64,000 bases of DNA from an uncultured Chitinophagales bacterium (GCA_964572735.1 CAZNHE010000005.1:8170-72169); one strand, 5' to 3'; positions 17,904-40,083 are shown, counted from the first letter of the stretch. The notes: generated from the sequence alone by a model not told the origin. Translations and numbers: made by a program.

Positions 17904-18331
17904 GCGGGATAGAAGAAGCGGCTGGCAGTTGGCATTCGGCTGTCAGTCGGCAGACGATCGGGGAAGTTATCTTCCTGAGCTTCGGCAAGACTTGTCATAC
18001 TTCAAACCTGAGTTCGATTTTAAATCGGATTCAGCATTACCAGTGCTTTCCAGCCGGTTTCTAACGGTCCCTGAAGGGGCGGTTTGCGACCAGACCAGGG
18101 GTTAAGGCCTTGTAGAAATGGGTACGGCCCGGTGGAAAGTTTTCGCTAATTTTATCTTTGGTTAAAGCCATAATATTTGATCTAAGCCATAGTTTAACTA
18201 ACGACTTATTATGGCGAAGGCATCTAATTTTTCCGATTTTCAGGCTTCTTAAAACACCTGTTCACCTCTTTTTTCCGTATAGCTATTAATCGGACCCGGG
18301 TTAAAAATACAATACCTTTTTTCCCCTTTTT

Positions 18332-18396
18332 CCATTGCCGCCGGCTTAAGCAACCTGGATTTCCTCTTTCCTATACCCATTGCCGCCGGCTTAAGC
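18332..18396. repeat. Direct repeat CCATTGCCGCCGGCTTAAGC, two copies with a 45-nt period
   Basis: Identical 20-mers lie at 18332-18351 and 18377-18396. Each is preceded by a pyrimidine tract (TTCCCCTTTTT and TTCCTCTTTCC). Confidence 0.8.
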
Positions 18397-18524
18397 CGAC
18401 GGATATAAGATTGCCTCCAAATCGGGCTTCAGCCCATGGAAACGCCGGGCGATCATGGGCTAAAGCCCGATTTAGTGAAAGGCTTTGTAGTCCGTCAGCT
18501 AAAGCAGACGGCAAAGTTTTTTGC
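18377..18524 (+). ncRNA. Candidate structured small RNA, or a stem-loop array ending in a terminator-like hairpin with a U-tract
   Basis: Three stem-loops occur in tandem. H1 is 18383-18402 (CCGCCGGC-TTAA-GCCGaCGG). H2 is nested: the outer stem AAATCGGGC (18419-18427) pairs with GCCCGATTT (18465-18473), and the inner stem GCCCATG (18432-18438) pairs with CATGGGC (18454-18460). H3 is CCGTC (18492-18496) with GACGG (18507-18511), followed by CAAAGTTTTTTGC. No family is recognised. Confidence 0.3.
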
Positions 18525-18828
18525 TACGATCACTTTATCCCTGGCGGGATTTATGGGGAACAGATGATCCCACTCCGACAAATCCGTTTTATTTGATTGT
18601 CATTTATATTCATGCCCGTACCCGACAGTCAAATTCCCGATTATGAAATACGAGCACCATCCGGTGGATCGGAGTGAGCACGAATGCCCGGTAACGTAAA
18701 TACAGGGATCCCGGACTCACGTTACTTTAAAAGAAATTGTTTACGCGGTACGGCCAACTTCCCCTTTGATAGTACCGGTAAATTTACTTCACGATTAAAA
18801 AGGTTATAGCTTGTTAAGGGCTTTTCGT

Positions 18829-21081
18829 TCATTTTAAAGTAAAGATATCCACCACAGAAGACGTTACACTGGTACCGCTGGGATAAGTGTATCGGCTTAC
18901 GGCTCCTCCTCCGAAAAGAATTTCATTGCCGGCAGCAGCGGCGGCCAGGTTTGTCCGGTCTACGCTTAATTCCATAGTTGTCCACTCGCCGGTGCCGATA
19001 TCATATACATCTACGGTCTTTGCAGATCTGTGGGATTGAGTATCGCCGGCAACGCCTCCGCCTATCAGTATTTTATCTCCAAGACCGGTGGCTGCCAGAT
19101 TCCGTCTTGCCTGACTGAGCTGTGCCGTACTCCACGTGCCGGTGTTTACATCATAAATATCAACGGTTTTCGATGCGAAATCATTGCCACCGGTATATCC
19201 ACCCGCAAAGATGATCTTGTTTCCCGCTGCTGCGGCTGTGTGCCAGTATTTTGCTTCGCTTAAGTGCGTTGTTGTCCATGTACCGGTATTCACATCATAA
19301 ATGTCGACTATGCTTAACGGTGAGCCGATGCCTACAGCATGCCCTCCTGCAAAAACTACTTTATTCCCCGCGCCGGCAGCGCATAATTCGTATCTCGCCT
19401 GGCTCAAATGGGATACGGTCCATTGTCCGGAAGTTACATCATATATATCCACGGTATTTGAAAAACCTGAGCTGCCGTATCCTCCTCCGAAAAGAATTTT
19501 ATTGCCGGCAGCTGCGGCGGCCAGGCCTTGTCTTGCTTCGCTCAACTGAGCGGTTGCCCATTGGCCAGTACTCACATCATAAATATCTACCATATTTGAA
19601 GGGGAATCGCCATCGTATCCTCCTGCGAAAACAATTTTATTACCCGCTGCTGCGGCGGCCAGGGCGCTTCTGGCTACGCTTAAATGCCATTGCGTCCATG
19701 AATTGGTAGTCACATCATATATGTCGACTTCAGCGGAAGGCCCGGAGCCACCTGCGAAAACGATCTTGTTGCCTGCACCCGCGGCAACCAGTCCTGCTCT
19801 GGCGGGAATGGTTGCAGAACCTGTGTATTCAACCTCTCCGGCCTGTTGCTGTTTTTGTTTTATTTCAAAAATAACATCGGCGTTATCATTATGGGCGGAT
19901 TGTCCATTTATCCTTATCCATAACTGTAATGCAACGGCCCCTATTTGTTGATCATAGTTGAATTTATAATCCGGGATAACAATTTCAATTTTTGTGTTGC
20001 TCCATGATACTACTTTTGGATCCGGTTGAAGCCGGCTTACGGGAATATTTTTTGTCCATAATTCTATGGTTGCATTTTTCGTATCAGGGTTAAGATATTT
20101 CCCGGTAACAGTGACCGTATCGCCGCCGCTAAAATGATACGCTTCTTTCCCGGGACTGGTCACATTGGTGATAATGGGATCATTTTCGAAATGTGCCGGG
20201 TCGCTTTTTATCCCGTTGCTGCTTACGACAAAATCCACATCAAAGGAAGACACAAACTGATCTACGTCATTTCTCTTCAGCGCTATTTTATCACCTTCAG
20301 GTTCCTTTATATATTCATCTGTTCCCTTCCTGTAAATGGAATCTATACTTACCTGATGGTTTCCATTGACCAGTACTTTTATTGCAGCATTTTGTTGATC
20401 CAGATTAGTCACGCTAAGATAATAGGGAGAAAGTGAATCGCTTGTATGTTTATACACAACTTGAATTACAGGCTTTTGCTGATAAATATAATCCACACTA
20501 TTGGATGATTTCTCATTTACCACCACTTTAACTTTTACTTTGCCCACAGCATGCTTTGGCGGTGCAACTATCAATTTTGTAGCTGAAAAAGATTGTAGGG
20601 AAGCGGCTTTGCCGTCAAACGTTACGGTTACCTTGCTTTGGTCATCGCCAAAGTTTTTACCGGTGATGGTTACTGCATTGAGGGTATAATCCCAGCCTAC
20701 TTTTGGAGAGATGCTGATAATCTGTGGCTGATCCGGTGTTAAATAGGTAAATACCGGTCCCCCTGCCGATTTGTCCCTCACTGTTACGGTTACTTTGCCG
20801 GTAGTGCCGTCCTGCGGCGCTATAACTTCCATGCTGGTTTCCGTGGTCTTTTTTATTTGTCCGGCCCGGCCATTGAATTTTACCGTGTTTTCCGCAAGAA
20901 TGAGGCTAAACCCTTCTCCCTTGATCGTTACCGGCGTTCCGGGTTTTCCGCCGGTTGGTGATATTTCATTTACCACAAGAATATCATCGGTTTCTGTATT
21001 ATTTATTTTCCGGCATTGGGTTAGAAGTATGCAGGAAAAGAAAAGTAGAAATGATATTTTAAAAACCGATTGCTTTTTCAT
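18829..21081 (-). CDS. Secreted (possibly lipidated) protein with IPT/TIG domains and a 7-blade Kelch-type beta-propeller
   Basis: The signal peptide is MKKQSVFKISFLLFFSCILLTQC. IPT-like segments include ISPTGGKPGTPVTIKGEGFS and ISPKVGW..VTITGKNFG. Seven tandem ~45-50-aa units follow the pattern A(A)AGNKI(V/L)F(A/G)GG ... VDIYDV.TG.W. The ORF track opens at 21120, but the ATG at 21081 gives the signal peptide. Confidence 0.8.
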   Translation of the reverse strand: MKKQSVFKISFLLFFSCILLTQCRKINNTETDDILVVNEISPTGGKPGTPVTIKGEGFSLILAENTVKFNGRAGQIKKTTETSMEVIAPQDGTTGKVTVTVRDKSAGGPVFTYLTPDQPQIISISPKVGWDYTLNAVTITGKNFGDDQSKVTVTFDGKAASLQSFSATKLIVAPPKHAVGKVKVKVVVNEKSSNSVDYIYQQKPVIQVVYKHTSDSLSPYYLSVTNLDQQNAAIKVLVNGNHQVSIDSIYRKGTDEYIKEPEGDKIALKRNDVDQFVSSFDVDFVVSSNGIKSDPAHFENDPIITNVTSPGKEAYHFSGGDTVTVTGKYLNPDTKNATIELWTKNIPVSRLQPDPKVVSWSNTKIEIVIPDYKFNYDQQIGAVALQLWIRINGQSAHNDNADVIFEIKQKQQQAGEVEYTGSATIPARAGLVAAGAGNKIVFAGGSGPSAEVDIYDVTTNSWTQWHLSVARSALAAAAAGNKIVFAGGYDGDSPSNMVDIYDVSTGQWATAQLSEARQGLAAAAAGNKILFGGGYGSSGFSNTVDIYDVTSGQWTVSHLSQARYELCAAGAGNKVVFAGGHAVGIGSPLSIVDIYDVNTGTWTTTHLSEAKYWHTAAAAGNKIIFAGGYTGGNDFASKTVDIYDVNTGTWSTAQLSQARRNLAATGLGDKILIGGGVAGDTQSHRSAKTVDVYDIGTGEWTTMELSVDRTNLAAAAAGNEILFGGGAVSRYTYPSGTSVTSSVVDIFTLK

Positions 21082-21109
21082 GATTTTAATTAGCCTGGCT
21101 AAATAAACG

Positions 21110-23209
21110 CTATTGCACAATTAACGTTTTCACTTCACTTACAGCCGATTCCTTTCCGTTTTCATATATCGCCTTGATGGCATATTGAAAACTTCCCTTT
21201 CCAATAGATTCTTTATAGGTCATTTTATTTCCCGGTATATTCCCGGCCATTTTCAGCCCTGTATTATTTTTCCCCTTATATAAAATGTAATAGCTGATAT
21301 CGCCGACCGGCGCTGCCCAACTCAGAACGGCACTGCTGTCATTTTTACTCACTTCAAAATTTTTGATGACGCCGGAATAGCCTTTACTGTACACATATAC
21401 ATTCAGAGGAAATGATTTACCGGAACTTAGTCCGCTGCTGTCAAAGGCTTCAATGGAATAGGAATAATTATGCAGCGGCTTTATATCATTGTCTGTGTAG
21501 GCGGAATCAATGGCAGGTAATTCTTCTATTAACACCCATGTATTTGTACTGTCGTCTTTGCGATAAAGCTTTTGAGCGGCTACATCTTCGCTGGCGCTGC
21601 GGTACCATTGCAATGCTACACTCGTATCGCTGACATTAAAATCATGTATGATAGCAGCCATTGGCGGGATCACATCCGGTTTTGCTAATTTCAATATCTC
21701 GGAAGCAGGACTGGCGTTCCGATTGCGGTCGTAAGCTATGACTTGATAGTAAATATCTTTAGTTAGCGTTTTCACGGTTATGGAATCGGTAAAGAGGGTG
21801 TCGGGTATCAAGATTCCAAGCAGTGGTGTAAAAACCTGGCTTGGATTGTTGCTGAAGAAAATGCGGTACCCGGCAAGATCCGGTTCAACATTCCAGTTCC
21901 AATGGATATGCACTATTCCCGTTGAATCGATTTTACCGGCTAAGCCAGTAGGTTGGGCAGGAGGGGTGTGGTCTTCGGCGTTCATATACGCCGGCATGGA
22001 CCTTCCGGAATTTAAAGCGGTATCAACAGCCGCTACGATGTAATAATTGGGCGCTCCTGTCTTTGGATGTTCATCCGTGAAGTCATGGGTTTCAAAACCC
22101 AGGAGGCTGTCGGTAAGCGATTCATAGGGCCCGTCCAGGTTAACACTCCTGCCAACGACATAGCCAATGAAGTCTGCTTCCTTAACGTTTTTTTCCCAAT
22201 GAAAGGAAATTTTGGAGCCGTTGTCGGTATTTTGAATCTGGGTGATGATAGGCGGGTGAGGCGGCGTGAGGTCTCTGCCCATTCCTATGACCACATCGGA
22301 AGGTTTCGACAGATCACCAAAGGCAGAAATGCCAATTACCCGGTACCTGTATTTAACATAGTTGGCAATGGTGGTATCTATAAATTCAATGGGTTTGGGA
22401 AGTCTTCCTTGTCTTTGAGAATAGACATAAGGCAAGCGGTTCAGCCGTTTATAATTTTGCCCATCCTTCGAACGCTCAATATAAAATGCCGAATAGCGGT
22501 CGCCGGTTGGATTATTATACCAAAAGAGGTGAATAACCTGATCTCCCGCAACCGTTTTCAAAATGGGGGACGGACTTGGTTTGGTTATTAAACCTCCGTT
22601 TACAAATACCAGAGCCGTATCGGAGCGAATAATTCTTTGCGAATCTACCGGGGTTACGGCATAGGTGTAGTAATGGTCTTTGTCTATTGTGCTATCCTCA
22701 TATCTTAATCCGAGGCCTTCGGCAATTTTGGCATTGAAATCGGCAATCATCAGGGCGAAGCCAAAGCGGTTTTGCTGTTCATGGTATTTGTTTATGATGT
22801 CTTGCATAGACATCGAGCCGGCTTTAAACGGTAATGTTTCGCCATACAGCAACTCGGCGGCCATGGCGGCCAGGCTGTCGTGTGAGGCTTCAAAATACTG
22901 CTGCCACTGCTGCATGGTCCACACCGGAATGTGGACAGAGTCTTTGGCTATTTCTTTAAAATCGCCATTAGCATCTTTTTCATATACTCGGCGGGTAACC
23001 TTGTAGCCGTCTTGCTTTGTCAGAATCCATGTGGCGGCGTCACCGGGCGCCCATCGCAGTACCACTTTACTACCATAATTTTTATAAATGAGATGCATGT
23101 GGGCAAGGGTATCTGCCTTGGTCGTATCCGGTTTCGCAGGGGCATTTATATTCTGCCCGAACCCCAAGCCGGGTAAGAAGAGTACGACGAAAAACAGATA
23201 TTTTATCAT
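21110..23209 (-). CDS. Secreted multi-domain protein with FN3-like repeats, function unknown
   Basis: The 699-aa ORF has the signal peptide MIKYLFFVVLFLPGLGFGQ and repeated FN3-like strand patterns (V.L.W, YR..A.D..GN.S..S, e.g. YYQVIAYDRNRNASPAS and YSYSIEAFDSSGLSSG). Confidence 0.65.
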   Translation of the reverse strand: MIKYLFFVVLFLPGLGFGQNINAPAKPDTTKADTLAHMHLIYKNYGSKVVLRWAPGDAATWILTKQDGYKVTRRVYEKDANGDFKEIAKDSVHIPVWTMQQWQQYFEASHDSLAAMAAELLYGETLPFKAGSMSMQDIINKYHEQQNRFGFALMIADFNAKIAEGLGLRYEDSTIDKDHYYTYAVTPVDSQRIIRSDTALVFVNGGLITKPSPSPILKTVAGDQVIHLFWYNNPTGDRYSAFYIERSKDGQNYKRLNRLPYVYSQRQGRLPKPIEFIDTTIANYVKYRYRVIGISAFGDLSKPSDVVIGMGRDLTPPHPPIITQIQNTDNGSKISFHWEKNVKEADFIGYVVGRSVNLDGPYESLTDSLLGFETHDFTDEHPKTGAPNYYIVAAVDTALNSGRSMPAYMNAEDHTPPAQPTGLAGKIDSTGIVHIHWNWNVEPDLAGYRIFFSNNPSQVFTPLLGILIPDTLFTDSITVKTLTKDIYYQVIAYDRNRNASPASEILKLAKPDVIPPMAAIIHDFNVSDTSVALQWYRSASEDVAAQKLYRKDDSTNTWVLIEELPAIDSAYTDNDIKPLHNYSYSIEAFDSSGLSSGKSFPLNVYVYSKGYSGVIKNFEVSKNDSSAVLSWAAPVGDISYYILYKGKNNTGLKMAGNIPGNKMTYKESIGKGSFQYAIKAIYENGKESAVSEVKTLIVQ

Positions 23210-23219
23210 GGTATTAATT

Positions 23220-23939
23220 TTATCTATTTCTGTATATGGTAATGGTTCGGCTAATGGGTAAATTTTGAATTTTATTAAAATCGATGAACCCTATCAGCAC
23301 TTTATAACCGCCTGAAAGCTCCGCGCTGGTATGTGCCGGTGCTATGGGTACATCGGTTATGGGATCGATGAAGCGAAAATCAGCCTTTATACTCGGCGGT
23401 TTGTGCAAACTTAAAGTCAAATCTCCGTTGTATTTCCCTATGTATATTTGATCCAGCATGCCCTGCATTTCATTGATTTTATATTCATAATATTTAACAC
23501 GTCTTTGATATTCTTTGGCCAAATCGTAATTATAATTTGCAAGAGCATTGGCAGAGAAATCTGTATAATCATCTTTCATTTTTTGATAAAAAGGTATTTG
23601 CCTTTCCAGTGCGTATTCCAAAACATCGATGTCTTTATTAGCTCTTAATGGGATGGCATAATCTACTGTCATATCCTTGTTTGCGGCTAAAATAGCATAC
23701 GCTTCAGCCTTTTTTAAGTTTTCTTTGGCTGATGCCGAAACATAAGTAGCGTTGCCTGAAGCTTTCATATTGGAGATTGCATTGCCCTTTCGGGTTTTAG
23801 TTACTGTTTGTTTGACGATTACATTTCTTGGCACGGCATTCATTACACTGTTCATCATACTTGCTGTAAACCTGATTTGTGCCATTGCGGTAGTCGTTAT
23901 GAAACATGTTATAAAAATTAAAAAGATACGTTTCATCAT
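23220..23939 (-). CDS. Secreted 239-aa protein, function unknown
   Basis: The signal peptide is MMKRIFLIFITCFITTTAMAQ. The ATG immediately follows the stop of the upstream giant gene (TAAATG). Confidence 0.6.
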   Translation of the reverse strand: MMKRIFLIFITCFITTTAMAQIRFTASMMNSVMNAVPRNVIVKQTVTKTRKGNAISNMKASGNATYVSASAKENLKKAEAYAILAANKDMTVDYAIPLRANKDIDVLEYALERQIPFYQKMKDDYTDFSANALANYNYDLAKEYQRRVKYYEYKINEMQGMLDQIYIGKYNGDLTLSLHKPPSIKADFRFIDPITDVPIAPAHTSAELSGGYKVLIGFIDFNKIQNLPISRTITIYRNR

Positions 23940-26900
23940 TTAATTGTTTACTTGATTGAATTTTGTGGCTGTGTTTACCATTTGTGAACGCTTAACTACC
24001 TTAAACCCCGATACATTTATTCCATTGATATAAGTAGGTTCGGCGGCTTTTATTTCCTTTGCAGTGAGTGGCTGATCGACGTCTTCAATGAATACAGGCC
24101 GCTGCGGAACACAATACCTGCCAAAGCTTACAGTACACCCAATCCCTTCTAATTGTAGTTCTCTCGGTGATAGGCCCTTCTCGATGCGGGCTTTATCCAA
24201 GTCTATATTCGCATCATCAAATTTTTTATATACCAGGGGTACCGCCTGTTCTTTCATCCATTTGTTTAAATCATTATTCTCTTTCAGGACTACCAAAGGC
24301 ATGGTATAGAACATGATTTCTTTATTGATATAATTGTCACTGGTGAAGCCTTTTACATCATACGTATCAAACCGCTCTGCTACTTTTAATTGAGAACCCG
24401 CGCCAAAGAAGTGATAAAGTACTTTATCAAAGCGAGCCCCGGCCATTTTATCCGCCAATGTATTATAACGGCTGGTTTTGAAATGATAGGAGTATAAAAC
24501 AACATCCAGGTTTTTATTACCGAGCGTTGCTTTATGGTTACTTGTATTAAAGGACTTATTTATATAGGCTGAATTTTTTTTATTATCAAAAGCCTGATAA
24601 TACTGGCTGCCTACTTTCATGGTATTACTGCCTTCCGTGTGAATGGCTCTATTGAGCCTGCTGGCCAAAGCAGGTGAAATATTATAAACGATGTAATCAT
24701 CCAATTTGGAGAATTGTGTACGCTTGATGATCTCAACCCTGATAATCGTCTCGTTGGGCAGTTTGGGTATATCAAAGTACAGATATTGGCCTGCTCCCTC
24801 AGTTATTGGACTTTCATAACCTGGTAATTCCTTGCCACCTTTAACCGGTGTGAATCGCGCAAAAAGCTTATATTTTTCTTTAACATTACGCAGACATCCA
24901 TAAGCTTTGTCCAGTATAATAGCGCCCCTTTTAGATTCACCCTGTAAAAAATAACGCTGATTGGGGAAGGGGTAAGCTCCAAGCCGATTGCGGGAGTCAG
25001 AAATTATCTGGTCCGGTTTGCATGCTCCTGTTTTAAAGGTTGAGGTAGAATCGCCAATTACGGGCTGCCCATTTTTATCTATAGCAGGAGTCCAACTATC
25101 TGTATAATGTGCCACAAAATTGGGTCCAATTGCTATCTTACTTTGCATAGCCTTCACCTTGATGTGCGTACGGTAATTAGTTTGGCCTTTAAGCGCATCG
25201 ATTGTCAATAGAGTGAGGTCATGATGATTATCATCGAAAGCGGGATGGCTGTCTTTGTCGCGGTAATCAGCGTAAACGGTATTATCATCAGTATTAGTTA
25301 TCGTTAAGTCATCAATTTCTATTTTAAATCGCCATGGCCTGTGGAAATTGGGGTCGATCAATTCAAACGGTTTTTCAATAGGATAGTTGAAGACGAATTC
25401 AGGATATGCATTTAAGGGTACTTCGGTTTTTCCATTGTTGGGTTTGACCTCTTGAATAAGCGGTAACGTAAATGCGCTTTTTTGTACTACGCACGCTTTT
25501 CCAATGGCTACTTTAAAGCCAATATTACCCTCAATCAGTCCATTTAACACTTCATAATGGGTATTGGTATATCCTTTAAGCCACATAGGGTTTGGAAGGC
25601 CGGCCTGGACCAGTATATCCGCCCGCAATCTTAAAGCAGTAAGTTTACAATCGTGGCAGAAAAACATATCCACATAAAGCCCAAAAGCACCTTCAAGCCC
25701 GGCATAAGCCTGTCCCAAGGCATACCAGCCATTAAATCCCCCCGCCTTTTCGCCATCAGCACAGGTTACCGCAGATTGAAGCGCGACGTCAAAACCAAGA
25801 CCGGCTTTGGCCTCAAAAAAGAAAACCAAAAACCTGAGGTCGTAGCTAAATTTAGCCGATGCCCCCATGACAACACCACCTTTAGAACTCATATGGAGTT
25901 TTTGGTAACCGGGCAGTTCCCCCACGTTTACAATACCGGGATCGGGTTCCGGCAAAGAAGAATTTATTTTATTGCCGGCCATGAAGTAGGCTTTCAGTTT
26001 TAGGTCCAGGATATGGAGAGGATCCTGCATAGAAAGGTGTATGCGTCTGCCATAGTCATTAGGGCCGGGGAGCGGCCGCGGATTTCCAATTTTTATATAA
26101 TAGTTTTGGTTTTTGGCATCGGCCAGTAACGCGAAATTTCCGCCTCCTTTAAACCAGCCAAGGTAATTTATGTCCACGGCAGCATTAATTGAAAAAACCT
26201 TGTCAGATACACCGATCAACCAGTCCACATCCGCTTTTACGGGCGCATTATCGTCAGCTTCTAATACATCACTTCCGCTGATTTTAAATAATTGAATGTA
26301 GGCATTGCCGTTTAGCGATTGAAGCGAAAAGCCACCCGCTACATTAAATGTAGCACCCAGTGTTCCGATACCTGTAAATAGGGTCCCATCCGAACTGCTT
26401 ATGCCCACCATTAATTTCATGCCAAAAGAACCTGGACGTGGCTGATATTTATCCAGCCTGTATTTGCTGCGGTTGGCAAAATAATCTTCCGGTTTCATGC
26501 TCTTCAGAACCGTTGGCGCCAGGTTATAATATGCCCCGCCGCCAAGCCCTTGCAGCGAAATGCCGGGGCCAATAGGAACGGGTTCGGGCAGAGTGCCGTA
26601 GGCGTCAAAATACCAGTAGTTGTTACCGCTTTTATTGCCAAACATCGCATGGCAATCTACCGAGGCGCCCGGCAGCCCGGCGAACGAGGCATGAAGTATG
26701 CCACGAATGCCGTCGCCGTAGGCTGGGTCGTCTCTCATAAAATCAATTTCACCCTTATCTATTTGAACAATACCCGCGAGGTTGCCGGAAACCTTAACCT
26801 TATTTATGTTGAAATCGGTTCGCTTCCAAATAGGCCGGTCGCCGCCCAACACGTTGGCTGATAAAACAAGAGTCGTGGTAGCATCGGGCAGCAGTTTGCT

Positions 26901-29546
26901 GTTGATGTCGCTCAGTGTTAACCCCAAATCAAATTGTAACCCAACATTGTTTCCAACCATTGTTGGACGCACATCTGTAATGCTTACCGGAAAGCCTGCA
27001 ATGGAATGTTGGGGTGAAGAGAAGGAGAAGCCGGTCGATATATTTCCCACCCTCACATACGGTTCTTCTGAACGTACTACAAGATTTTCTACTTTGATTA
27101 GATCTAACCCAATTTTATACCCTTCTATATTGCCTTCAATATTTAACTTTCCCGAAAGCGCGGCTGATGCTGCTGTATTACCTGTTTCGGTATTGTTGGT
27201 TACCTCAATGGCTATATTATTGAGGTCGATGTGTGCCCACCAGGCAGAAAAATCAATATCATTCTTTTGTTTGGCAATGAATTGATATTTGACATCACCG
27301 CCATTTGCTGAAGAAGAGAGAGTAGAGGAGTAGGCGATACGGCTTTGTACTTTATTTTTATCCGAAAATGGAAGTATTATCTGCCCGTACAGACCGCCTT
27401 CTTTAAAGGATGAATTCAACAGCTTGATGTTGATCCTATCTACCGAGCAATACCAGCCGCCCACTGAGCCGTCACCGATGTTTACAATATTTTGGGCGGC
27501 AACCACACCGGTTAAACCGGCTTTGTCTAAAATGAGGTTGGCAGCGCTTATTTCAAGCTTATTATCGGGCCGGCGCGTATTTTTTACGATAGAGGGAAGC
27601 GCAACAGTCACTTTTGGAATGAAAAAACCTGTCCATAAGGCATTTCCGATGACTGGATTCTTTCCGGCTAATGCCGCATCATTAAACGATGAAGGCATGC
27701 CTGTCGGGTTTTTCAAGGTGGAATGATCGTAATACGCATTCCCATTTAAAGTAAAAACAACATTTTTTAGAGAAGGCACTATAAAAGGATCCATAGCCAC
27801 TGAAGCCGTCCAGCTGCTCCAGCTTTTGATGTCTGCGTCCAGGATGGCTTTTTCGGGAGAACCGTTGGCCTGGGTAATTTGTGAAGCCGGAAAGTTATAT
27901 TCGGCATGAATGTGAAACTTCTTCAGCTTGTTTTTGGAATAGAGAACATAGGTACCTGGCTTTGTTTTCGACTGATAGCTTTTAAAATTCAGGTTAAGGC
28001 CCGGTACATTAAAGTCTTTATTCAAAACAAATAACGCATTGCCGCACATGCAGGTAGCATTGCTGAAACACACGTCCTTTGCCGTCATTGAGAGCACCTG
28101 GTTTGCATCCGCAAGTTGCACGGCAGCCACCGCATTATACGTGGCTTGTGAAGGTGTAATATTCAGACTTACAACGGCAGCATTCACCCCGTCGGGTGTT
28201 CCCGCGGCATGTAAACCGAAAGGCAGCATAAAGCCTGCGCCGTTTTTAATCGCATCCAGGTTGTAATTCCTTATGCGATCTATGAATGATTTGTAATTGG
28301 CTGTAGAAACGGAAGGAGAGCCGCCATTAGTCAAAAAATCGAACCCATTAGCTTTTTTGGCTACGGCACGTCCCGCAATGGCAATTCCGCTTTTATTGAC
28401 TACAACTTCGGTAAAAGTAACCTGCACCGGCACGTTGTTCATCATTATGGTGCCGTCGCCGGAAACGGTACCTCCATTGTTGTTCAGGCTGCCTATTTTT
28501 ATCGGGAGCGTGGCCATGCTAAAGCTGCCGCCGGCTTTGAGTGCGGCGTTATTATTGATTTGATCGAGGGAGGCAACATCCACAGCACAGGAGCAATTTC
28601 CTTGTTCAACTATCGGGAGCTTTCCGGAGACGGCTACAGCTTTTTGGGTTTCACCATACTGAAAGATCCTAATCTGGCTTCTGCCGTTATTCTCAAAGGC
28701 CGTTTTGCCGGTAAGGTCTCTTGCCTGCACCATCAGGGCATATTGGCTTCCTTCATCCAGTTGAAAAGTAGTGAGGTTTGTAAACTGAAAATTATTAATG
28801 GGAATATTGGATTGTTTCAAAAATATTCCCGCGCCGTATTGTACCGCATTATTGAGTGATACATACGGATTTTCGTCGGGTAAAACCTTTACCAGGTACA
28901 GATCATACACCAGCGAAGCGCCCTGCATATTCCCCACGGGCCGTGTCCAGCTAATATTCATATTCTGATTGGGAGTCGGCAGGATCTTATCACCGGGTAA
29001 CGGATTGAGGATCTGCGGCGGACTTACATAACCTACGTTGTAAGCAAAGCACCCTCCAGGTCCCTGAGGATCACTGACAGGAAAATAATTGCCGTTGGCA
29101 TCCCGCGTATAGGCGTAAATGCAAAAAGTATAAAAGCCCTCCGGTATCATGCCAAACTGGAAAAGATTACTGTAAGATTTATCATCCAGATTGGTCTGAA
29201 GATTATTGAGGTTCAGATAATTTTCATCCAGCTGATTGCCCTGAACCACCACGGTTTGCAGGCCCGGTACATGAATGGGAATATTGGAAAAAACATTAGG
29301 CGCCGTCTGTATATATTGCCCACGGTCATTGTCAAGCCGCCCCCTGATATAAACATCCCTCGCAATCTGTGAATGATTGGTAAATGAAATGATCGGCTTG
29401 TATTTATAATCGGAAATGTAAGCGGAATAAGGCGGCGCGAGCTGTACCTGCAACGTAATGGGATAATTGTTCTGCCCAAATGATTTATTTATAAAACCAA
29501 ATAGAAGCGGTATTAGAAATACTATTTGAAATATTCTTTTTGTCAT
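23940..29546 (-). CDS. Giant (1868 aa) secreted protein of unknown function
   Basis: An uninterrupted ORF has the signal peptide MTKRIFQIVFLIPLLFGFINKSFGQ. The N-terminal region has Ig/FN3-like patterns (ISWTRPVG..YDLYLVKV). I recognised no catalytic, RTX, RHS/YD or T9SS C-terminal-domain motif. Confidence 0.7.
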   Translation of the reverse strand: MTKRIFQIVFLIPLLFGFINKSFGQNNYPITLQVQLAPPYSAYISDYKYKPIISFTNHSQIARDVYIRGRLDNDRGQYIQTAPNVFSNIPIHVPGLQTVVVQGNQLDENYLNLNNLQTNLDDKSYSNLFQFGMIPEGFYTFCIYAYTRDANGNYFPVSDPQGPGGCFAYNVGYVSPPQILNPLPGDKILPTPNQNMNISWTRPVGNMQGASLVYDLYLVKVLPDENPYVSLNNAVQYGAGIFLKQSNIPINNFQFTNLTTFQLDEGSQYALMVQARDLTGKTAFENNGRSQIRIFQYGETQKAVAVSGKLPIVEQGNCSCAVDVASLDQINNNAALKAGGSFSMATLPIKIGSLNNNGGTVSGDGTIMMNNVPVQVTFTEVVVNKSGIAIAGRAVAKKANGFDFLTNGGSPSVSTANYKSFIDRIRNYNLDAIKNGAGFMLPFGLHAAGTPDGVNAAVVSLNITPSQATYNAVAAVQLADANQVLSMTAKDVCFSNATCMCGNALFVLNKDFNVPGLNLNFKSYQSKTKPGTYVLYSKNKLKKFHIHAEYNFPASQITQANGSPEKAILDADIKSWSSWTASVAMDPFIVPSLKNVVFTLNGNAYYDHSTLKNPTGMPSSFNDAALAGKNPVIGNALWTGFFIPKVTVALPSIVKNTRRPDNKLEISAANLILDKAGLTGVVAAQNIVNIGDGSVGGWYCSVDRINIKLLNSSFKEGGLYGQIILPFSDKNKVQSRIAYSSTLSSSANGGDVKYQFIAKQKNDIDFSAWWAHIDLNNIAIEVTNNTETGNTAASAALSGKLNIEGNIEGYKIGLDLIKVENLVVRSEEPYVRVGNISTGFSFSSPQHSIAGFPVSITDVRPTMVGNNVGLQFDLGLTLSDINSKLLPDATTTLVLSANVLGGDRPIWKRTDFNINKVKVSGNLAGIVQIDKGEIDFMRDDPAYGDGIRGILHASFAGLPGASVDCHAMFGNKSGNNYWYFDAYGTLPEPVPIGPGISLQGLGGGAYYNLAPTVLKSMKPEDYFANRSKYRLDKYQPRPGSFGMKLMVGISSSDGTLFTGIGTLGATFNVAGGFSLQSLNGNAYIQLFKISGSDVLEADDNAPVKADVDWLIGVSDKVFSINAAVDINYLGWFKGGGNFALLADAKNQNYYIKIGNPRPLPGPNDYGRRIHLSMQDPLHILDLKLKAYFMAGNKINSSLPEPDPGIVNVGELPGYQKLHMSSKGGVVMGASAKFSYDLRFLVFFFEAKAGLGFDVALQSAVTCADGEKAGGFNGWYALGQAYAGLEGAFGLYVDMFFCHDCKLTALRLRADILVQAGLPNPMWLKGYTNTHYEVLNGLIEGNIGFKVAIGKACVVQKSAFTLPLIQEVKPNNGKTEVPLNAYPEFVFNYPIEKPFELIDPNFHRPWRFKIEIDDLTITNTDDNTVYADYRDKDSHPAFDDNHHDLTLLTIDALKGQTNYRTHIKVKAMQSKIAIGPNFVAHYTDSWTPAIDKNGQPVIGDSTSTFKTGACKPDQIISDSRNRLGAYPFPNQRYFLQGESKRGAIILDKAYGCLRNVKEKYKLFARFTPVKGGKELPGYESPITEGAGQYLYFDIPKLPNETIIRVEIIKRTQFSKLDDYIVYNISPALASRLNRAIHTEGSNTMKVGSQYYQAFDNKKNSAYINKSFNTSNHKATLGNKNLDVVLYSYHFKTSRYNTLADKMAGARFDKVLYHFFGAGSQLKVAERFDTYDVKGFTSDNYINKEIMFYTMPLVVLKENNDLNKWMKEQAVPLVYKKFDDANIDLDKARIEKGLSPRELQLEGIGCTVSFGRYCVPQRPVFIEDVDQPLTAKEIKAAEPTYINGINVSGFKVVKRSQMVNTATKFNQVNN

Positions 29547-29554
29547 CCGCTTCT

Positions 29555-31306
29555 TTAAAATGAGTAATTGTAACGTGCTGAGACCATCATTTGCCTGCGC
29601 GATGGATTTATGATCGTATTTTTATTTTTTGTTGCGGTATAATTCGCATTTAGCTGCAATGAATGCCGTTTCAGGAATATGACGTTTATACCGGGGTTTG
29701 CCGAAATCGTATGGGCGGTGGCATGGTTGTTCAACCTGTTTGAAAAATAGCCGCCAAAGAGGGAGAGCGTAACGGAGGTTATAAAATGCTTTTCGATTGA
29801 TGCATCAGGCAACAGGCTTTTGCTGATACCGAGATTGTATCCTATTGTAGCGGTTTTATTGCCGGTAAGTGCAGTGTTAAAATAATTCAGTGTGTTGGTG
29901 ATGCTGATCTTTTTCTCGGGAAAAATAAGCGTATAGATCAGACTGCCCATGGTGGAAGTGAAATCCTGGCTGCTTTGCGCCTGGTTGTTGTTCTTTAACC
30001 CCTGAAGGCTAACCTGCATGCTGATGGAATGTTGAATGGTCTTTTTATTGATGAATAAATGCGGCGAAATAGATATAGATTGGTTCACCTGGCTGATGCG
30101 TACCGAATCGTAGCGTGCGTAAGTCGCCGGGTCCTGAAGTCGCGGGATGATCTGCTGCGAAATGCCATAGTTGGAATATTGAAGACCAATGCCAAAGGCC
30201 TGCGATGGTATAAAATTTATGCTGATGTTTCCAATGGTTCTTTCGGTATTGCTGACCGCGGTTTTAGCCAGGTTATTTTTCTGAAACCCGAGGTCGGATT
30301 GCAGATGCAGCTTATTTTCAAGTAATGAAAGGTCAAAACCGGCAGTGTATTGTGCTATATCCGTCTGCATATAGAAGGCGCCCATGGATTTATAATCGGG
30401 ACCCACTCTGCGGTATTTCAGACGAATATTTCCTTTACTAAAACGATACCGGATACCCGCTTCTCCGGCAAACGCAATCCGCGAGCTTGTTTTAGGTGAA
30501 AATGAGGCAAACTTCGACCATTTCTCGTCCGTTTCCAGTAAGTCGCCTCCAACATTCCTGGTATAATAGCTCGCCGCGGCATCTATGTTAAAAGAGACGG
30601 CTTTCAACAACGTGGCCTGTCCTTTGATACCTGCTACCTGATTGGCTGCAGGCTTTAACTGCACATTTTCCGGGTTGATGCCCTGGATAGAAGTGCTGTC
30701 GTCTTTAGCCTGCAGATAAGAAAATTCGATGAAGTTTTTGGAAGATCCATAGCCTATTTTCGCGGCAAAGCCCTTGCGTTTGTATAAAGGGATATTGTTG
30801 TTCAGGTTATTATATTGTGAGATATTTGTAACCGCATCATTGAATTTCCCATATATGAAGGCCGCCCTGAATTTGCCAGGAGTAAGTTCAAAACCGGCAC
30901 CCAGTATCTGCTGGCCGCTTAATGTAAATTGGGAAAAATTCAGAGAGCGCCAGCCAAGGTGCAGCTTCGCCCATTTGTAATGAGGACTCATGCCAAACCG
31001 GTTGAAGGAACGCGTACTGATACTTCTGCTCTGGCTGGCAACCATGATATTTACCGGAATAGAAAACCCATACAGCGAAAGCACCGGATTGCCCTGAATA
31101 AAATAGGAGGGTGAATGGCCAAATGAAGAATGAGATAAATTGCCATTTCCATTGGAAAGGTCGCTGTAATAATTTAGCCCTGAGGAAATGCTGCCGTGAA
31201 AAGTGATCAATTTCCGATTTTTCAGATGTGCCAGGTCCTGGGAGTGAACGGCAATTACACAAGTGGAACTAAATAAACAGCTTAATATGAATATTTTTTT
31301 GCGCAT
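29555..31306 (-). CDS. Outer-membrane beta-barrel protein (583 aa) with no POTRA or plug domain recognised
   Basis: The signal peptide is MRKKIFILSCLFSSTCVIAVHSQ. Alternating hydrophobic/polar beta-strand patterning runs from about residue 30 to the end, and the C-terminus is ARYNYSF (terminal aromatic). The gene lies 8 nt upstream of the giant gene. Confidence 0.65.
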   Translation of the reverse strand: MRKKIFILSCLFSSTCVIAVHSQDLAHLKNRKLITFHGSISSGLNYYSDLSNGNGNLSHSSFGHSPSYFIQGNPVLSLYGFSIPVNIMVASQSRSISTRSFNRFGMSPHYKWAKLHLGWRSLNFSQFTLSGQQILGAGFELTPGKFRAAFIYGKFNDAVTNISQYNNLNNNIPLYKRKGFAAKIGYGSSKNFIEFSYLQAKDDSTSIQGINPENVQLKPAANQVAGIKGQATLLKAVSFNIDAAASYYTRNVGGDLLETDEKWSKFASFSPKTSSRIAFAGEAGIRYRFSKGNIRLKYRRVGPDYKSMGAFYMQTDIAQYTAGFDLSLLENKLHLQSDLGFQKNNLAKTAVSNTERTIGNISINFIPSQAFGIGLQYSNYGISQQIIPRLQDPATYARYDSVRISQVNQSISISPHLFINKKTIQHSISMQVSLQGLKNNNQAQSSQDFTSTMGSLIYTLIFPEKKISITNTLNYFNTALTGNKTATIGYNLGISKSLLPDASIEKHFITSVTLSLFGGYFSNRLNNHATAHTISANPGINVIFLKRHSLQLNANYTATKNKNTIINPSRRQMMVSARYNYSF

Positions 31307-31345
31307 CCCAGCTCTATATTGGCACTAAGGCTTATTTTTCAAATT

Positions 31346-31361
31346 TTGAGCATTTGCTCAA
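31346..31361. promoter_or_regulatory. Inverted repeat TTGAGCA-TT-TGCTCAA in the island operon promoter region; candidate operator
   Basis: The 7-bp arms lie 40-55 nt upstream of the ATG at 31306. On the minus strand the repeat sits between a TTG and AAAATTTG, resembling the Bacteroidetes -33/-7 promoter elements (TTG/TAnnTTTG). A direct repeat AATTTCAACT also occurs at 31360-31369 and 31388-31397. Confidence 0.3.
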
Positions 31362-31562
31362 TTTCAACTCACTGTGTACTCCACGGTAATTTCAACTATT
31401 TCCATAGCCGGTGTGTTTAATACGGCTATTTTTTATATCACCATCAATCGATTCTAACAGCTGAAATTTTATTGGTGATAAAGAAGCGTTGCCTGTTTCT
31501 ATTGCAGGTTTATTATCAAATAATCCGGTATTTGTCGTTATTTCCTATTATATCAATCACAT

Positions 31563-32063
31563 TTATTGCTTTAATAAAACCCTGAAAAATCCATTGGTCA
31601 CTTCCATCGTTTCATCAGACTTATAGGGACTTGCGGTAAAATGAAAGGTCCCCTCTATCACTTTATCATTGGCTTTGGTAAGTACATATTCTCCCATTTT
31701 TGCCTTCAAGAGATTGCCATTTCCAAAATCCAGATCGGCGCCCGTCATTTTGAGGTGTTTTCCAACCTTGATAAATGTCCGGTAAATGTAGAACGCGATC
31801 CGTATTTCTCCATTCGAACCTTGAATAAAGTGCGTGTTGGATTTATTGATTTCCATCATATTAGATGCTTCCCATGGTTTGCCGTCAACGACCGCCCTCA
31901 TGGTATAACCCTTTGAGGAAGTGACTACTTCCGGCGGTGCATACTTTTTCATGGCTTTCTGAATGGCGTTTGCCGTTTTTTGTGCCTTCTTGTGGGCAGG
32001 ATTTTGACAGGCCGCGGGAAATACGCACACGAATAAGAATAAGAGATAAAATAGAGGTTTCAT
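31563..32063 (-). CDS. Small secreted or lipoprotein-like protein (166 aa), function unknown
   Basis: The signal peptide is MKPLFYLLFLFVCVFPAAC, with a Cys at the likely cleavage site. The coding sequence is AT-rich and lies inside the island. Confidence 0.55.
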   Translation of the reverse strand: MKPLFYLLFLFVCVFPAACQNPAHKKAQKTANAIQKAMKKYAPPEVVTSSKGYTMRAVVDGKPWEASNMMEINKSNTHFIQGSNGEIRIAFYIYRTFIKVGKHLKMTGADLDFGNGNLLKAKMGEYVLTKANDKVIEGTFHFTASPYKSDETMEVTNGFFRVLLKQ

Positions 32064-32367
32064 GATGAGTGAGATTTAAATGATTGTTTCTTTTAGATTC
32101 GTTGGCAATCTAATTCTTGTCCGGCCTCAGTTCGGGACGGCCTATCCATTTCCCTTTTTTATTATGGTTTCGACGGCCCGGAACCATGAGAGCACAAGCC
32201 GGTTCTTTTGTAGTTCTCATTGAATAACCATTCCTATAAATCCGGAATGAGGTTGTTTTCCTCACTGACTCCATTGTATCCCGGCCAGGAATAAAGTATC
32301 AGCCGCCGGCTCTCCGGCATAGTATAAAAGCGACTTCCTGTAGTAAAAAAACGACAGAAAGGCGGCG

Positions 32368-33192
32368 CTAAAAAGCGAAGTGATAAGGGTTAAACGAAGA
32401 CGGAGTTGTGTCCAGGAATTGTTTGAACTCTCTGACGAGATGCATCTGGTCGAAATAACCTGCATCACAGGCTACAGCAGCCCACTTGGCATCTGTGGAT
32501 CGCATTCTCATCTCCAGCATGTTCTTAAACCGGAGCATACGCGCATATACTTTCGGACTTACCCCCACCTCCTTTGAAAAGTTCCTCTCAAATTGCCTCA
32601 TTGACAGGTTGCTCGCATCCGCAAGCTTTGTAATGGAAATATTACCGCGGTGCCGCACGAGATAATCAGCGGCCTTGTTGGTAGATGAACGCCTGCTTAA
32701 GTGCCCCCGGGAAAGCCGGATTAAATAAGGTTCTGCGATATCGATACACTCCCTGATGTTGCGGGCATATAGCAGCCGTTGGGCGAGCTCGTGAAACAGC
32801 GGATGAATACCGGCTGCGGGAACCGCTTCATTTGTAAATTCAGAGACAGGAATGCCCAACAAACGGTATAGCCCTGCGGGACGAAACTTTACGGTAAAAG
32901 AGATAAACAGGTTGTTTATCCGGATGGAATACTTTTTGAAGGTACGCGGCCCCCGGATGGTGCAGCGCTCGAAAGGAACGGACCAGCCGGTGGCATCATC
33001 AAAAGTGGCAAAATGGTCACCCAGGAAAAAATCAATGGAACTCACTTCCCTGAGCGGCATGGCCTTGCTAATATCATGTCCGGCAGGAGGCATAATGTAG
33101 CGGTACACATACTGATTGATGAACGGCTGTAGTGCCGGATGCGGAGTTTTATGGATCTTCAGGTTGTTGGGTGAAAGAAAAGTACCACTCAT
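32368..33192 (-). CDS. AraC/XylS-family transcriptional regulator
   Basis: The C-terminal double HTH includes ITKLADASNLSMRQFERNFSKEVGVSPKVYARMLRF and ACDAGYFDQMHLVREFKQF. The ORF track opens at 33312, but the ATG at 33192 (MSGTFLSP) is the more likely start. Confidence 0.8.
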   Translation of the reverse strand: MSGTFLSPNNLKIHKTPHPALQPFINQYVYRYIMPPAGHDISKAMPLREVSSIDFFLGDHFATFDDATGWSVPFERCTIRGPRTFKKYSIRINNLFISFTVKFRPAGLYRLLGIPVSEFTNEAVPAAGIHPLFHELAQRLLYARNIRECIDIAEPYLIRLSRGHLSRRSSTNKAADYLVRHRGNISITKLADASNLSMRQFERNFSKEVGVSPKVYARMLRFKNMLEMRMRSTDAKWAAVACDAGYFDQMHLVREFKQFLDTTPSSFNPYHFAF

Positions 33193-33662
33193 GGCCCCTC
33201 CTTCTTTACAAATAACTTTGCCGAAGAAAAGACAGTCATAATATCCTCGCAGTAAAAAATGATAGTAATAAGTATCCGGAGTTAAAGGGAGTAACCCAAT
33301 AGTAAATAACAAAAAAGCCGTAAAAATAACAACCCATGAATCGGACAGATCTATAGCCGGGTTTATTGTCAGCCTCTGAAAAAGTTCCGATTGTCATCCT
33401 GCCATCGACGGACTGCCAGCTAAACCGATAAGCTGTTTCCAACAGGTAATTGGCTGCCGGCGGTATAAAAAGGGATGAGGTATCAGCAAAGACCAATGAT
33501 GTCCGATTAACGATCCTTTATTTTCAGTCCCTCTATTCATGTCCCCTTACTTTTTAATATCCCCGCCTTTCAATACCTTTAGCATTGCATTTAATGTTTA
33601 TGCGCATAATATTTCAGCCCGAATCAAATCATTTTTTCAATTCCAAATAATCAACCAAGTTC

Positions 33663-34001
33663 ATGGCTTATATTGTAACGGAACCGTGCATCAACTGTAA
33701 ATACACCGATTGTTCGGCTGTCTGCCCGGTGGATGCTTTTCGCGAAGGTCCCAATTTTCTGACTATCGATCCGGACGATTGCATCGACTGCGATGCGTGT
33801 GTCTCCGAATGTCCGGTGGATGCCATTTATGCCGACGATGAGGTTCCTGAAAAATGGGAACATTATATCGATTGGAATGCCCGGCTTGCCGAAAACTGGC
33901 AGGATCGTATCATCAACGAGGCCAAGGATCCCCTTCCGGATGCCGATAAATGGGCTGAGGTTGAAGAAAAGGAAGATAAATTACAGGAAGACTGGGATTA
34001 A
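33663..34001 (+). CDS. fdxA: 7Fe-type ferredoxin (Azotobacter FdxA-like)
   Basis: The sequence [54 protein letters not shown] shows the classic CxxCxxxxCxxxCP plus CxxCxxCxxxCP pattern. Confidence 0.9.
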
Positions 34002-34033
34002 TCTTCCGGAATACCGCCTGAAACTTTTCCCGG

Positions 34034-34894
34034 ATGGCTGTTCCGACAAATCCCTTACGGGGTATCTTTAAAGCCAGAGGCAAGCGCCTAGATCTGTCCG
34101 GGCCGCGAATCATGGGTATTTTGAATATTACTCCGGATTCGTTTTCGGATGGCGGACTGTTTCTTGATACCGCTGCAGCCGTTCAGCGTGCTTCAGAAAT
34201 GGCCGCACAGGGGGCGGCTCTGATCGACATCGGGGGGGAATCCACGCGCCCGGGTTCTGATCCTGTTTCTCCGGAGGAAGAACTGAAACGTATACGGCCG
34301 GTTGTGAGGGAGGTCCGCCGGGAGCTCCCGGATATCATGATTTCGGTAGATACCCAAAAAATGGCGGTGGCGCGGGAGGCGCTTGAGCTGGGGGCCGATC
34401 TTATTAACGACATCAGCGGATTACAAAAGAATCCTGAGATTGCCCGCTTATGTGCAAAATACGATGCCGGCCTGATCATCATGCATTCCAAAGGCGACCC
34501 GAAAACCATGCAGGTCAATCCCGAATATGAAGATGTGGTCGCTGAAATAGAAACCTTTCTGAAGAGACAGACAGACCTGGCAAAAGCAGCGGGCGCGACC
34601 AATCTTATAGTCGATCCGGGGATCGGCTTTGGCAAAACGCTGGAACATAACCTGCAATTACTGGTTCACCTGACCCGGTTTGCCGAACTGGGGTATCCTC
34701 TGCTTATCGGCGCTTCACGGAAGTCGATGATTCACGCGTTGCTTGGTGAACGCCCGCCCGATCAGCGCCTTCCCGCCACATTGGCACTCCATTATGAAGC
34801 CATGATACAGGGTGCACGCATCCTGCGGGTTCACGATGTAAAAGAGGCGATGGACACAATACGCGTTTTCGAGGCGATTCGTTCTCATGAATGA
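34034..34894 (+). CDS. folP: Dihydropteroate synthase
   Basis: The 286-aa ORF has IMGILNITPDSFSDGG, DIGGESTRPG and NDISG. Confidence 0.92.
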   Translation: MAVPTNPLRGIFKARGKRLDLSGPRIMGILNITPDSFSDGGLFLDTAAAVQRASEMAAQGAALIDIGGESTRPGSDPVSPEEELKRIRPVVREVRRELPDIMISVDTQKMAVAREALELGADLINDISGLQKNPEIARLCAKYDAGLIIMHSKGDPKTMQVNPEYEDVVAEIETFLKRQTDLAKAAGATNLIVDPGIGFGKTLEHNLQLLVHLTRFAELGYPLLIGASRKSMIHALLGERPPDQRLPATLALHYEAMIQGARILRVHDVKEAMDTIRVFEAIRSHE

Positions 34895-35104
34895 TCGGTC
34901 CCGATGCATCGGGGCGCAGAGTCGCGGAGTTGCGAAAGAATGTAGGTGTGTTGAATACCCGGAATTCGAATAAAAGGATGGCTCATAGAAAATTGTGGTA
35001 TTTCGGTTATAATAAGATTTTGCGGAAGCTTCCGTTGTAATTAATTTAACGGCACTTGTTATAAAACTCCGGCTTTTGCGGGCGGGGTCGAAAAAGTACT
35101 TTTG

Positions 35105-36082: not shown

Positions 36083-36094
36083 GCAGCGGTCATT

Positions 36095-37354: not shown

Positions 37355-37357
37355 GGG

Positions 37358-39408: not shown

Positions 39409-39412
39409 TTTT

Positions 39413-40063: not shown

Positions 40064-40083
40064 GCGAACCTTAAGATTCTGGC

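Follow-up and report, generated by a model that had tools for sequence, protein, structure and literature searches.

An inserted 15.6-kb block carrying an operon for an outer-membrane barrel and a giant secreted protein in the receptor-fdxA spacer of an uncultured bacterium

In two-partner secretion (TPS), e.g. FhaC/FHA and ShlB/ShlA, the gene of a barrel is followed by the gene of a very large Sec-dependent protein, and the TpsB barrels are made of 16 strands. In the giant adhesin systems of the LapA/LapE kind, a wide barrel holds a part of its partner and the large extracellular part stays attached, and a barrel of the size of an usher or of MtrB can hold or pass an immunoglobulin (Ig)-like domain. 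The locus presented here has the gene order of two-partner secretion, a barrel gene and then the gene of a giant protein, within a block of about 15.6 kb lying between a TonB-dependent receptor gene and the fdxA-folP genes of an uncultured bacterium, labelled Chitinophagales in its assembly (GCA_964572735.1). The stretch analysed, hereafter the window, is 64,000 nucleotides long (CAZNHE010000005.1:8170-72169), and all positions are counted from its first letter. An earlier sequence-only reading had pointed there to an AT-rich island of about 15 kb, acquired in some way though without visible mobility genes, and the absence of the block from three relatives together with its outlying composition supports such an acquisition. 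Probably, the block was inserted in the receptor-fdxA spacer by horizontal transfer from a donor of about 44% G+C and carries a cassette that would serve in barrel-dependent export or anchoring. There is nothing unusual in such an event as far as islands go; what stands out is the cargo.

The block in the receptor-fdxA spacer

Syntenic relatives were recovered by protein search plus contig look-ups, and three of them were compared around folP, namely L090 (on a 2.43-Mb contig), L092 and L093. In each, a receptor gene is followed by fdxA-folP with a spacer of 170-360 bp; the receptor orthologues of L090 and L092 (56-64% identity) lie directly upstream of fdxA, and L093 encodes an 867-amino-acid (aa) receptor with the same domains and position. 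Downstream, L090 and L093 display the gene order of positions 35102-43628 of the window, i.e. DHH, trypsin-PDZ, trigger factor, ClpP, ClpX, kinase and sigma factor. None of the seven genes of the block gave a tblastn match in the L090 or L092 loci, nor was any found among the genes called in the L093 locus. In other words, 3/3 related loci lack the block at the syntenic position, and its placement between the TonB receptor gene and fdxA/folP, as proposed in the sequence-only reading, is confirmed. Since the receptor gene and fdxA are adjacent in relatives lacking the island genes, the block represents, with respect to these genomes, DNA inserted between two genes, and this much can be considered established.

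The comparison also places the junctions. Conservation upstream of fdxA begins near 33549 when aligned with L090, or 33585 with L092, and continues into fdxA. In L090 and L092, a terminator hairpin of the receptor gene, read in their sequences, directly precedes this conserved stretch and is missing after the receptor gene of the window. From the conserved fdxA upstream region and the missing hairpin, it follows that the extra DNA begins at the stop codon of the receptor gene (17903) and ends around 33530-33550, i.e. 15.6 kb, the right junction being put at ~33530-33550 on the strength of the alignments.

Regarding the host, FdxA and FolP are 88-90% and 65-69% identical, respectively, to their counterparts in L090 and L092, FdxA belongs to a 90%-identity cluster with a protein from a "Balneolales bacterium", and the named best relatives of FolP (57-69% identity) come from Balneolales, Balneolaceae and Fodinibius, which suggests a Balneolales-like host genome. 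A contig scan with FolP gave relatives at 55% identity or less among the matches listed, universal FolP motifs dominating there. L090, L092 and L093 group more closely with one another than with the window lineage, and the syntenic housekeeping region of L090 and L092 has ~45% G+C against ~50% in the window flanks, the window lineage being clearly higher in G+C than its nearest sampled relatives.

The block (17904-33549) has a G+C content of 44.1% compared with 50.1% in the rest of the window. Over 4-kb windows, the G+C fraction is 0.501 +/- 0.016 outside and 0.438 on average inside, with a minimum of 0.419 around 21-25 kb. The G+C at third codon positions (GC3) ranges from 0.36 to 0.52 in the seven island genes against 0.45-0.64 (mostly 0.52-0.64) in the flanking genes, and the tetranucleotide L1 distance to the background reaches 0.31 inside versus 0.155 +/- 0.017 outside. 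Once normalised for base composition, the tetranucleotide signature of the block correlates with that of the host at r = 0.845, compared with r = 0.943-0.971 for six host chunks of the block length. By windowed G+C, GC3 and tetranucleotides alike, the block is an outlier across the window, with the deviant base and oligonucleotide composition of a horizontally acquired island. The sequence-only reading relied on hand counts in six lines of 60 nucleotides, for which a recount gives 15, 14, 22, 28, 35 and 35/60, a single one having been off by one. As these lines were extremes, the sharp change it described is real but amounts to about 6 points rather than about 25, the mean line having 26.5/60 G+C inside versus 30.1/60 outside (Mann-Whitney p = 1e-21). 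The compositional island is confirmed as genuine, though milder than the hand counts implied; of the eight genes announced within it, only seven are credible.

The borders are indeed long and non-coding, as had been stated, with 925 bp on the left and, on the right, 350 bp up to fdxA or 470 bp if the regulator gene at this end begins at M41 (33192). Within the left border (17904-18828), no open reading frame (ORF) of more than 61 aa, no Rfam family and no similarity to the cassette loci of other genomes could be found, the search for a gene remnant or an RNA family being negative. At 18325-18530, it harbours a 20-nucleotide direct repeat, CCATTGCCGCCGGCTTAAGC, present twice 45 bp apart, with nested GC-rich hairpins having GGCTNNAGCC cores 3' of the repeats. 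The GGCTNNAGCC motif is seen nowhere else in the window and the hairpin cluster has an RNA fold z of -5.0; this element could be REP-like (repetitive extragenic palindromic), a terminator stack or a novel RNA. The earlier statement that no integrase, transposase, tRNA or clear flanking direct repeat accompanies the block is borne out by domain, tRNA and repeat scans: among the genes of the island and ten scanned genes of the left flank, none has an integrase or transposase domain, the only tRNAs of the window (at 37844 and 60079) do not adjoin the block, and the flanking direct or inverted repeats found are at chance level, none being convincing, for which attachment sites at the borders were rejected. 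The integrase or transposase, tRNA target and flanking direct repeats of a classical island are thus lacking. Besides, the Bacteroidota-type -7 promoter motif TAnnTTTG is neither enriched nor positioned ahead of the operon, and generic promoter and terminator scans stayed at chance level.

Further away from the block, other differences with the relatives were observed. To the left of the receptor gene, the window (12667-15284) encodes a DUF4097 protein and an RrnaAD-like methyltransferase, and the matching side in L090, L092 and L093 (positions 1-6800) a 714-769-aa protein and a Por_Secre_tail protein; synteny being lost on this side too, the receptor gene lies between two rearrangement points. 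To the right, the region between the trypsin-PDZ gene and the trigger factor contains an enoyl-CoA hydratase and CutA1 in L090 and L093; in the window (37358-37926), it contains a CutA1-like ORF and a tRNA-Leu but no hydratase.

The operon and its relatives in other genomes

The gene content of the block is established: all seven genes lie on the minus strand, the regulator being nearest fdxA, and five of them, encoding a barrel, a giant protein of 1,868 aa, a 239-aa protein, an Fn3 protein and a TIG-Kelch lipoprotein, form an operon with gaps of 8-28 bp or abutting genes (Table 1). A signal peptide is present in every one of the five products. That these genes constitute a conserved operon with a recognisable architecture had escaped the sequence-only reading. 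Judging by its homologues, this operon is one variant of an envelope cassette widespread in Bacteroidota and bearing no database name, the constant core of which is a barrel of ~580 aa, a giant with an N-terminal module of ~300 aa (N-module) and an Fn3-array protein. A full-text literature search returned no description of this cassette; one candidate article, PMC9950754, was rejected as it concerns unrelated polysaccharide-export genes.

The conservation of gene order is equally established. The succession of barrel, giant, small protein, Fn3 protein and TIG-propeller protein is also found in L001, L084/85 (labelled Puia sp.), L087/88 and L089, with variants of it in L082, L086 (Pedobacter foliorum) and L095. 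Scanning metagenomes of the Joint Genome Institute with the barrel profile yielded at least 551 relatives, of which 80 loci were read and searched with the component profiles. The N-module gene directly follows the barrel gene, with a median gap of 8 bp, in 68/68 loci having DNA beyond the barrel, and an Fn3-family protein comes next in 36 of the 38 loci with enough sequence; the window-type giant body, on the other hand, is present in only 9/38 and the TIG lipoprotein in 3/38. A HMMER search with residues 1-1200 of the giant retrieved 2,147 cluster representatives (520 at E <= 1e-30), and those checked had no Pfam domain and were named only "hypothetical". In L095 (8270-23172 of a 6.4-Mb contig), a frameshift divides the barrel gene and the neighbouring giant is devoid of the N-module, which heads instead a downstream phosphatase-like protein of 1,125 aa with fn3 and Pur_ac_phosph_N domains; an SprB/Por_Secre_tail protein is encoded between the barrel region and this protein.

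The neighbourhood of the cassette differs in every other genome seen. Cassettes usually stand beside a sensor-regulator pair, either a Reg_prop/Y_Y_Y kinase with LuxR or LytTR or a TPR kinase with LytTR, in place of which the window and L087/88 have a DUF6597-AraC regulator. In seven other genomes, the G+C content of the cassette differs from that of its flanks by no more than ~1 point downwards and 5 points upwards; as the cassette is not G+C-poor elsewhere, low G+C is not intrinsic to these genes. Named cassette relatives belong to Puia, Agriterribacter, Chitinophagaceae, Pedobacter, Chryseolinea and Flavobacteriales, mostly to Chitinophagaceae. Considering named relatives only, those of the cassette are all Bacteroidota whereas the host markers are nearest to Balneolales.

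Neither the barrel, the giant nor the 239-aa protein has a Pfam or NCBIfam match, and the profiles of the barrel, the giant and the N-module found no sequence match in the PDB; the 288 homologues of the barrel are all annotated "hypothetical". The AlphaFold2 model of the 583-aa barrel (predicted local distance difference test, pLDDT, 80.8; predicted template modelling score, pTM, 0.71) has at least 22 long strands over residues 113-582. Foldseek retrieved generic large barrels only for this model, such as the FimD usher with a template modelling score (TM) of 0.40-0.48 and MtrB at 0.39, at 8-11% identity; the top score is 0.44, to FimD at 11% identity, and in size the modelled barrel compares with an usher or MtrB. 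The C-terminal residue of the barrel is aromatic and that of the giant is not. The 583-aa protein is the only operon product resembling an integral outer-membrane protein. Residues 301-1500 of the giant were modelled as all-beta, with ~35 long antiparallel strands (pLDDT 78.6, pTM 0.45), and Foldseek gave weak matches to ApoB100 and LptD (E 2e-6 to 5e-5) and to large barrels, with a TM of 0.07-0.19.

The modularity of the N-terminal domain of the giant is likewise established. The N-terminus is 83% identical to that of P0022, the body of which is unrelated, and more broadly the N-module is 56-83% identical to the N-termini of proteins of 2,030-2,590 aa with unrelated, CarboxypepD_reg-containing bodies. 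In hhalign, the alignment of the two giant types is confined to residues 30-303; homology between the two bodies is rejected, as this profile-profile comparison aligns the N-module only. Conversely, P0032-35 and P0037 have the window-type body but lack the N-module. N-module and body are separable, and the N-module is the only part common to all barrel-adjacent giants. It looks like a beta-sandwich rather than a beta-helix, with a weak fn3 match at residues 193-281. A domain resembling it occurs as 7-10 tandem stretches in some very large proteins, among them P0347 (3,400 aa, labelled as an Armatimonadota metagenome-assembled genome, MAG, and so not from Bacteroidota) and P0341 (5,511 aa), and the N-module may possibly derive from a repeatable beta-sandwich unit. 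At the other end of the giant, conservation throughout the family also extends over the C-terminal ~180 residues.

Table 1. Position, strand and supporting evidence of the block, its genes and the host genes on either side
Feature	Position	Strand	Evidence or remark
TonB-dependent receptor, left host flank, outside the block	15285..17903	+	Pfam CarbopepD_reg_2 + Plug
Non-coding left border of the inserted block	17904..18828	.	925 bp, between two convergent stop codons
Probable lipoprotein, two TIG/IPT + six-blade Kelch propeller	18829..21081	-	Pfam TIG + Kelch
Secreted Fn3-array accessory protein, 699 aa, third of the conserved trio	21110..23209	-	Pfam fn3
Secreted 239-aa protein	23220..23939	-	no family match
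Giant protein body (residues 301-1868), all-beta, long antiparallel strands	23940..28646	-	AlphaFold2 model
Giant protein signal peptide + N-terminal module (residues 1-300)	28647..29546	-	conserved next to barrel
Outer-membrane beta-barrel, 583 aa, first operon gene	29555..31306	-	signal peptide, C-terminal ...YNYSF
DUF6252 lipoprotein, 166 aa	31563..32063	-	Pfam DUF6252; NCBIfam Riean_0653 family below cut-off
AraC-family regulator (DUF6597 + HTH_18)	32368..33192	-	Pfam; probable start M41 (33192), ORF reaches 33312
Non-coding right border	33193..33549	.	alignment with L090, L092, L093
Conserved fdxA upstream region + fdxA + folP, right host flank	33550..34894	+	Pfam
fdxA	33663-34001	+	Pfam
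folP	34034-34894	+	Pfam

The remaining genes differ in how closely they follow the cassette. The Fn3 protein is 44-57% identical to the equivalent gene product in L087, L089, L001 and L084. The 239-aa protein is only 23% identical to its counterpart in L087, no counterpart being called in L082 or L086, and it is fast-evolving and optional in the cassette. The signal peptide of the TIG-Kelch lipoprotein ends in Cys, its propeller has Kelch matches in the PDB and its TIG part shares 43-54% identity with the product of the last cassette gene in L082 and L087, where the propellers are of the NHL type. Its start is most likely the ATG at 21081 (MKKQ...) and not the TTG at 21120, which removes an apparent overlap with the Fn3 gene. 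At 18895-19803, its Kelch blades give a DNA periodicity of 138-144 bp (repeat families D1-D4), the internal repeats looking recent. As for the AraC regulator, the TTG start of the longest ORF is probably wrong and M41, giving 274 aa as for a 279-aa homologue, the right one; the same DUF6597-AraC architecture stands upstream of the cassette in L087 and L088, at only 27% identity with the window. The DUF6252 lipoprotein is without counterpart in the other cassette loci and falls outside the conserved cassette. PADLOC gave no match for the genes of the block and PHROGs only generic Kelch, Fn3 and HTH matches, on which ground a defence or phage origin was rejected.

Origin and proposed function

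The insertion point would be the short spacer between the terminator of the receptor gene and the promoter region of fdxA, any mobility gene or attachment repeat having presumably been lost since the acquisition, and a transfer into the host can be proposed, the named relatives of the cargo being Bacteroidota. Several points weigh against such a transfer: no integrase, transposase, tRNA or direct repeat at the borders accounts for the insertion, identity to the best homologues from outside is just 76% for the barrel and 59% for the giant, and candidate donors could not be told apart by tetranucleotide signature. Moreover, the relatives being closer to each other than to the window, one ancestral deletion would fit the synteny equally, and their loci being at ~45% G+C, the 44% of the block is not foreign to the order overall, from within which the donor may have come. 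The block could then be ancestral here and have been deleted once in the ancestor of L090, L092 and L093, its low G+C reflecting a gene-specific bias, e.g. that of secreted proteins with weak expression and a high content of Asn, Lys, Ser and Thr. The position of the window lineage as outgroup of the three relatives, the want of mobility genes or att-like repeats, the lack of a close donor among the sampled homologues and the ~45% G+C of the other genomes of the order would all agree with this history. GC3, however, is largely independent of amino-acid content and yet lower in the island, the signature remains an outlier after G+C normalisation, in the seven other genomes the cassette, compared with its flanks, is not G+C-poor, its context differs in every other genome seen, and the relatives show an intact terminator beside the fdxA upstream block, with no scar; such an ancestral deletion is unlikely. 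Composition, the G+C of the cassette elsewhere and its differing neighbourhoods favour insertion over deletion. An assembly or binning artefact, by which a fragment of another organism was joined into a MAG contig, hardly deserves credence: the source is probably a MAG, and composition and taxonomic affinity set the block apart from its flanks, but host genes stand in conserved order on both sides, the block sits exactly in an intergenic spacer with the fdxA upstream region intact, a pattern that chimeric joins do not give, and a protein sharing a 90% cluster with the giant is encoded on an independent Logan assembly contig (P0281), a match at the protein level.

Regarding function, all five operon products would cross the inner membrane by Sec, the barrel would insert in the outer membrane, and the N-module of the giant would dock in, or pass through, this wide barrel, by which the all-beta body would reach the cell surface or be anchored there. 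Both the Fn3 protein and the TIG-Kelch lipoprotein could be scaffold or ligand-binding partners, the former obligatory and the latter an optional surface partner with an exchangeable propeller (Kelch here, NHL elsewhere), and the AraC regulator would turn the operon on under some condition. The mechanism is constrained by the giant having neither a terminal beta-signal nor a type IX secretion system (T9SS) C-terminal domain, and by the N-module being the sole feature invariably coupled to the barrel gene. We infer that export or anchoring of the giant by the barrel via the N-module is the most economical model, contact between barrel and module, surface display and regulation all being conjectured along with it. 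Against it, no homology supports the function, the Foldseek matches being generic, and the identities of barrel and N-module are only moderately correlated (Spearman 0.54), as for any two linked genes.

Other roles for the giant have been weighed. A constant N-terminus with exchangeable bodies, followed by a small and poorly conserved gene (23% identity), recalls polymorphic toxins and contact-dependent antagonism, with delivery by the N-module, a payload in the body and the 239-aa protein as immunity factor. Yet the C-terminal ~180 residues are conserved in the family and not variable, no toxin, Rhs, PT-HINT or CdiA-type domain was detected, PADLOC had no match and PHROGs only the generic Kelch, Fn3 and HTH ones, and the 239-aa protein, which has no counterpart in L082 or L086, carries a signal peptide and is not cytoplasmic, all of which makes this role highly improbable. 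It is also very unlikely that the giant handles lipid or hydrophobic cargo by amphipathic beta-sheets, in the manner of LptD, AsmA or ApoB, instead of being displayed at the surface. Foldseek does rank the ApoB100 beta-belt and LptD as the best matches for the body, and its model does contain ~35 long antiparallel strands; the TM of these matches nevertheless corresponds to no real superposition, no AsmA, DUF490 or LptD Pfam match is found, the giant has a cleavable signal peptide instead of an inner-membrane anchor, and in other cassettes the body is swapped for unrelated CarboxypepD_reg or MG-like arrays. Beyond barrel-dependent export or anchoring as such, it is tentatively suggested, with more doubt than confidence, that the trio might be a pathway for export or anchoring at the outer membrane of Bacteroidota and relatives that had not been recognised before, in which a portable beta-sandwich N-module of ~300 aa targets interchangeable giant cargo to a wide barrel, the window copy having been transferred into a different phylum (Balneolota in the NCBI taxonomy). 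Such a pathway would be unrelated in sequence to TPS, ushers, T9SS and autotransporters, its cargo comprising a phosphatase-like protein and giant bodies of at least two unrelated types.

In terms of genome evolution, this is a clean and checkable gene gain, with both junctions in an intergenic spacer and no mobility machinery, and it bears on the transfers missed by island finders that depend on integrases or tRNAs. The gene set is common in soil and aquatic Bacteroidota, where it encodes proteins of ~2,000 residues, and the barrel, the N-module and the window-type giant body have no entry in Pfam, NCBIfam or the PDB. Should the barrel indeed handle the N-module, this would be a new route of giant proteins to the bacteroidotal surface, beside type IX secretion.

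Comparison with known systems

As a genomic island, the block resembles those devoid of mobility genes by its deviant composition, its syntenic absence, its accessory cargo with its own regulator and its location in an intergenic spacer, and differs from others by having long non-coding borders in place of a tRNA target, integrase and direct repeats. Regarding the cargo, type IX secretion likewise concerns secreted surface proteins of large size and rich in beta structure, within the same group of organisms, and the host relatives encode Por_Secre_tail proteins next to the very same receptor gene. None of the five operon products (0/5), however, has a Por_Secre_tail or type-B C-terminal domain, and the conserved signal-like domain of the cassette giant is N-terminal.

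With chaperone-usher systems (FimD, PapC), the cassette shares the best structural superposition of its barrel (TM 0.40-0.48), a pore sized for Ig-like domains and partners rich in Ig/Fn3-like folds. Unlike them, it has no Usher or PapD/chaperone Pfam match and no pilin-sized subunits, the identity is only 9-11%, and for the modelled barrel a TM below 0.5 would be no evidence of homology with ushers. MtrAB (PDB 6r2q) is similar insofar as MtrB figures among the better barrel matches (TMq 0.39), and LapA/LapE in concept, by the retention of a giant in a wide barrel, but the cassette has no genes of a type I secretion system and no haem motifs.

The closest likeness in gene order remains that to two-partner secretion, which extends to a conserved N-terminal domain of ~300 aa on exchangeable cargo, as encountered here in 68/68 loci. 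The cassette barrel has nevertheless no Omp85/ShlB or POTRA match in Pfam or NCBIfam, even at E <= 10, no TpsB/Omp85 structure is among the 50 Foldseek matches listed for it, and at least 22 long strands are present in its model. For the N-module, there is no match to TPS (Haemagg_act), for the giant only a sub-threshold one of 15 residues to the filamentous-haemagglutinin repeat (E 0.06), and the obligatory Fn3 partner has no counterpart in TPS. Because the Omp85/POTRA and TPS domains were absent when tested, the cassette is not a two-partner secretion system; rather, it can be viewed by analogy as akin to two-partner secretion or to a pore-retained adhesin, while being a member of neither.

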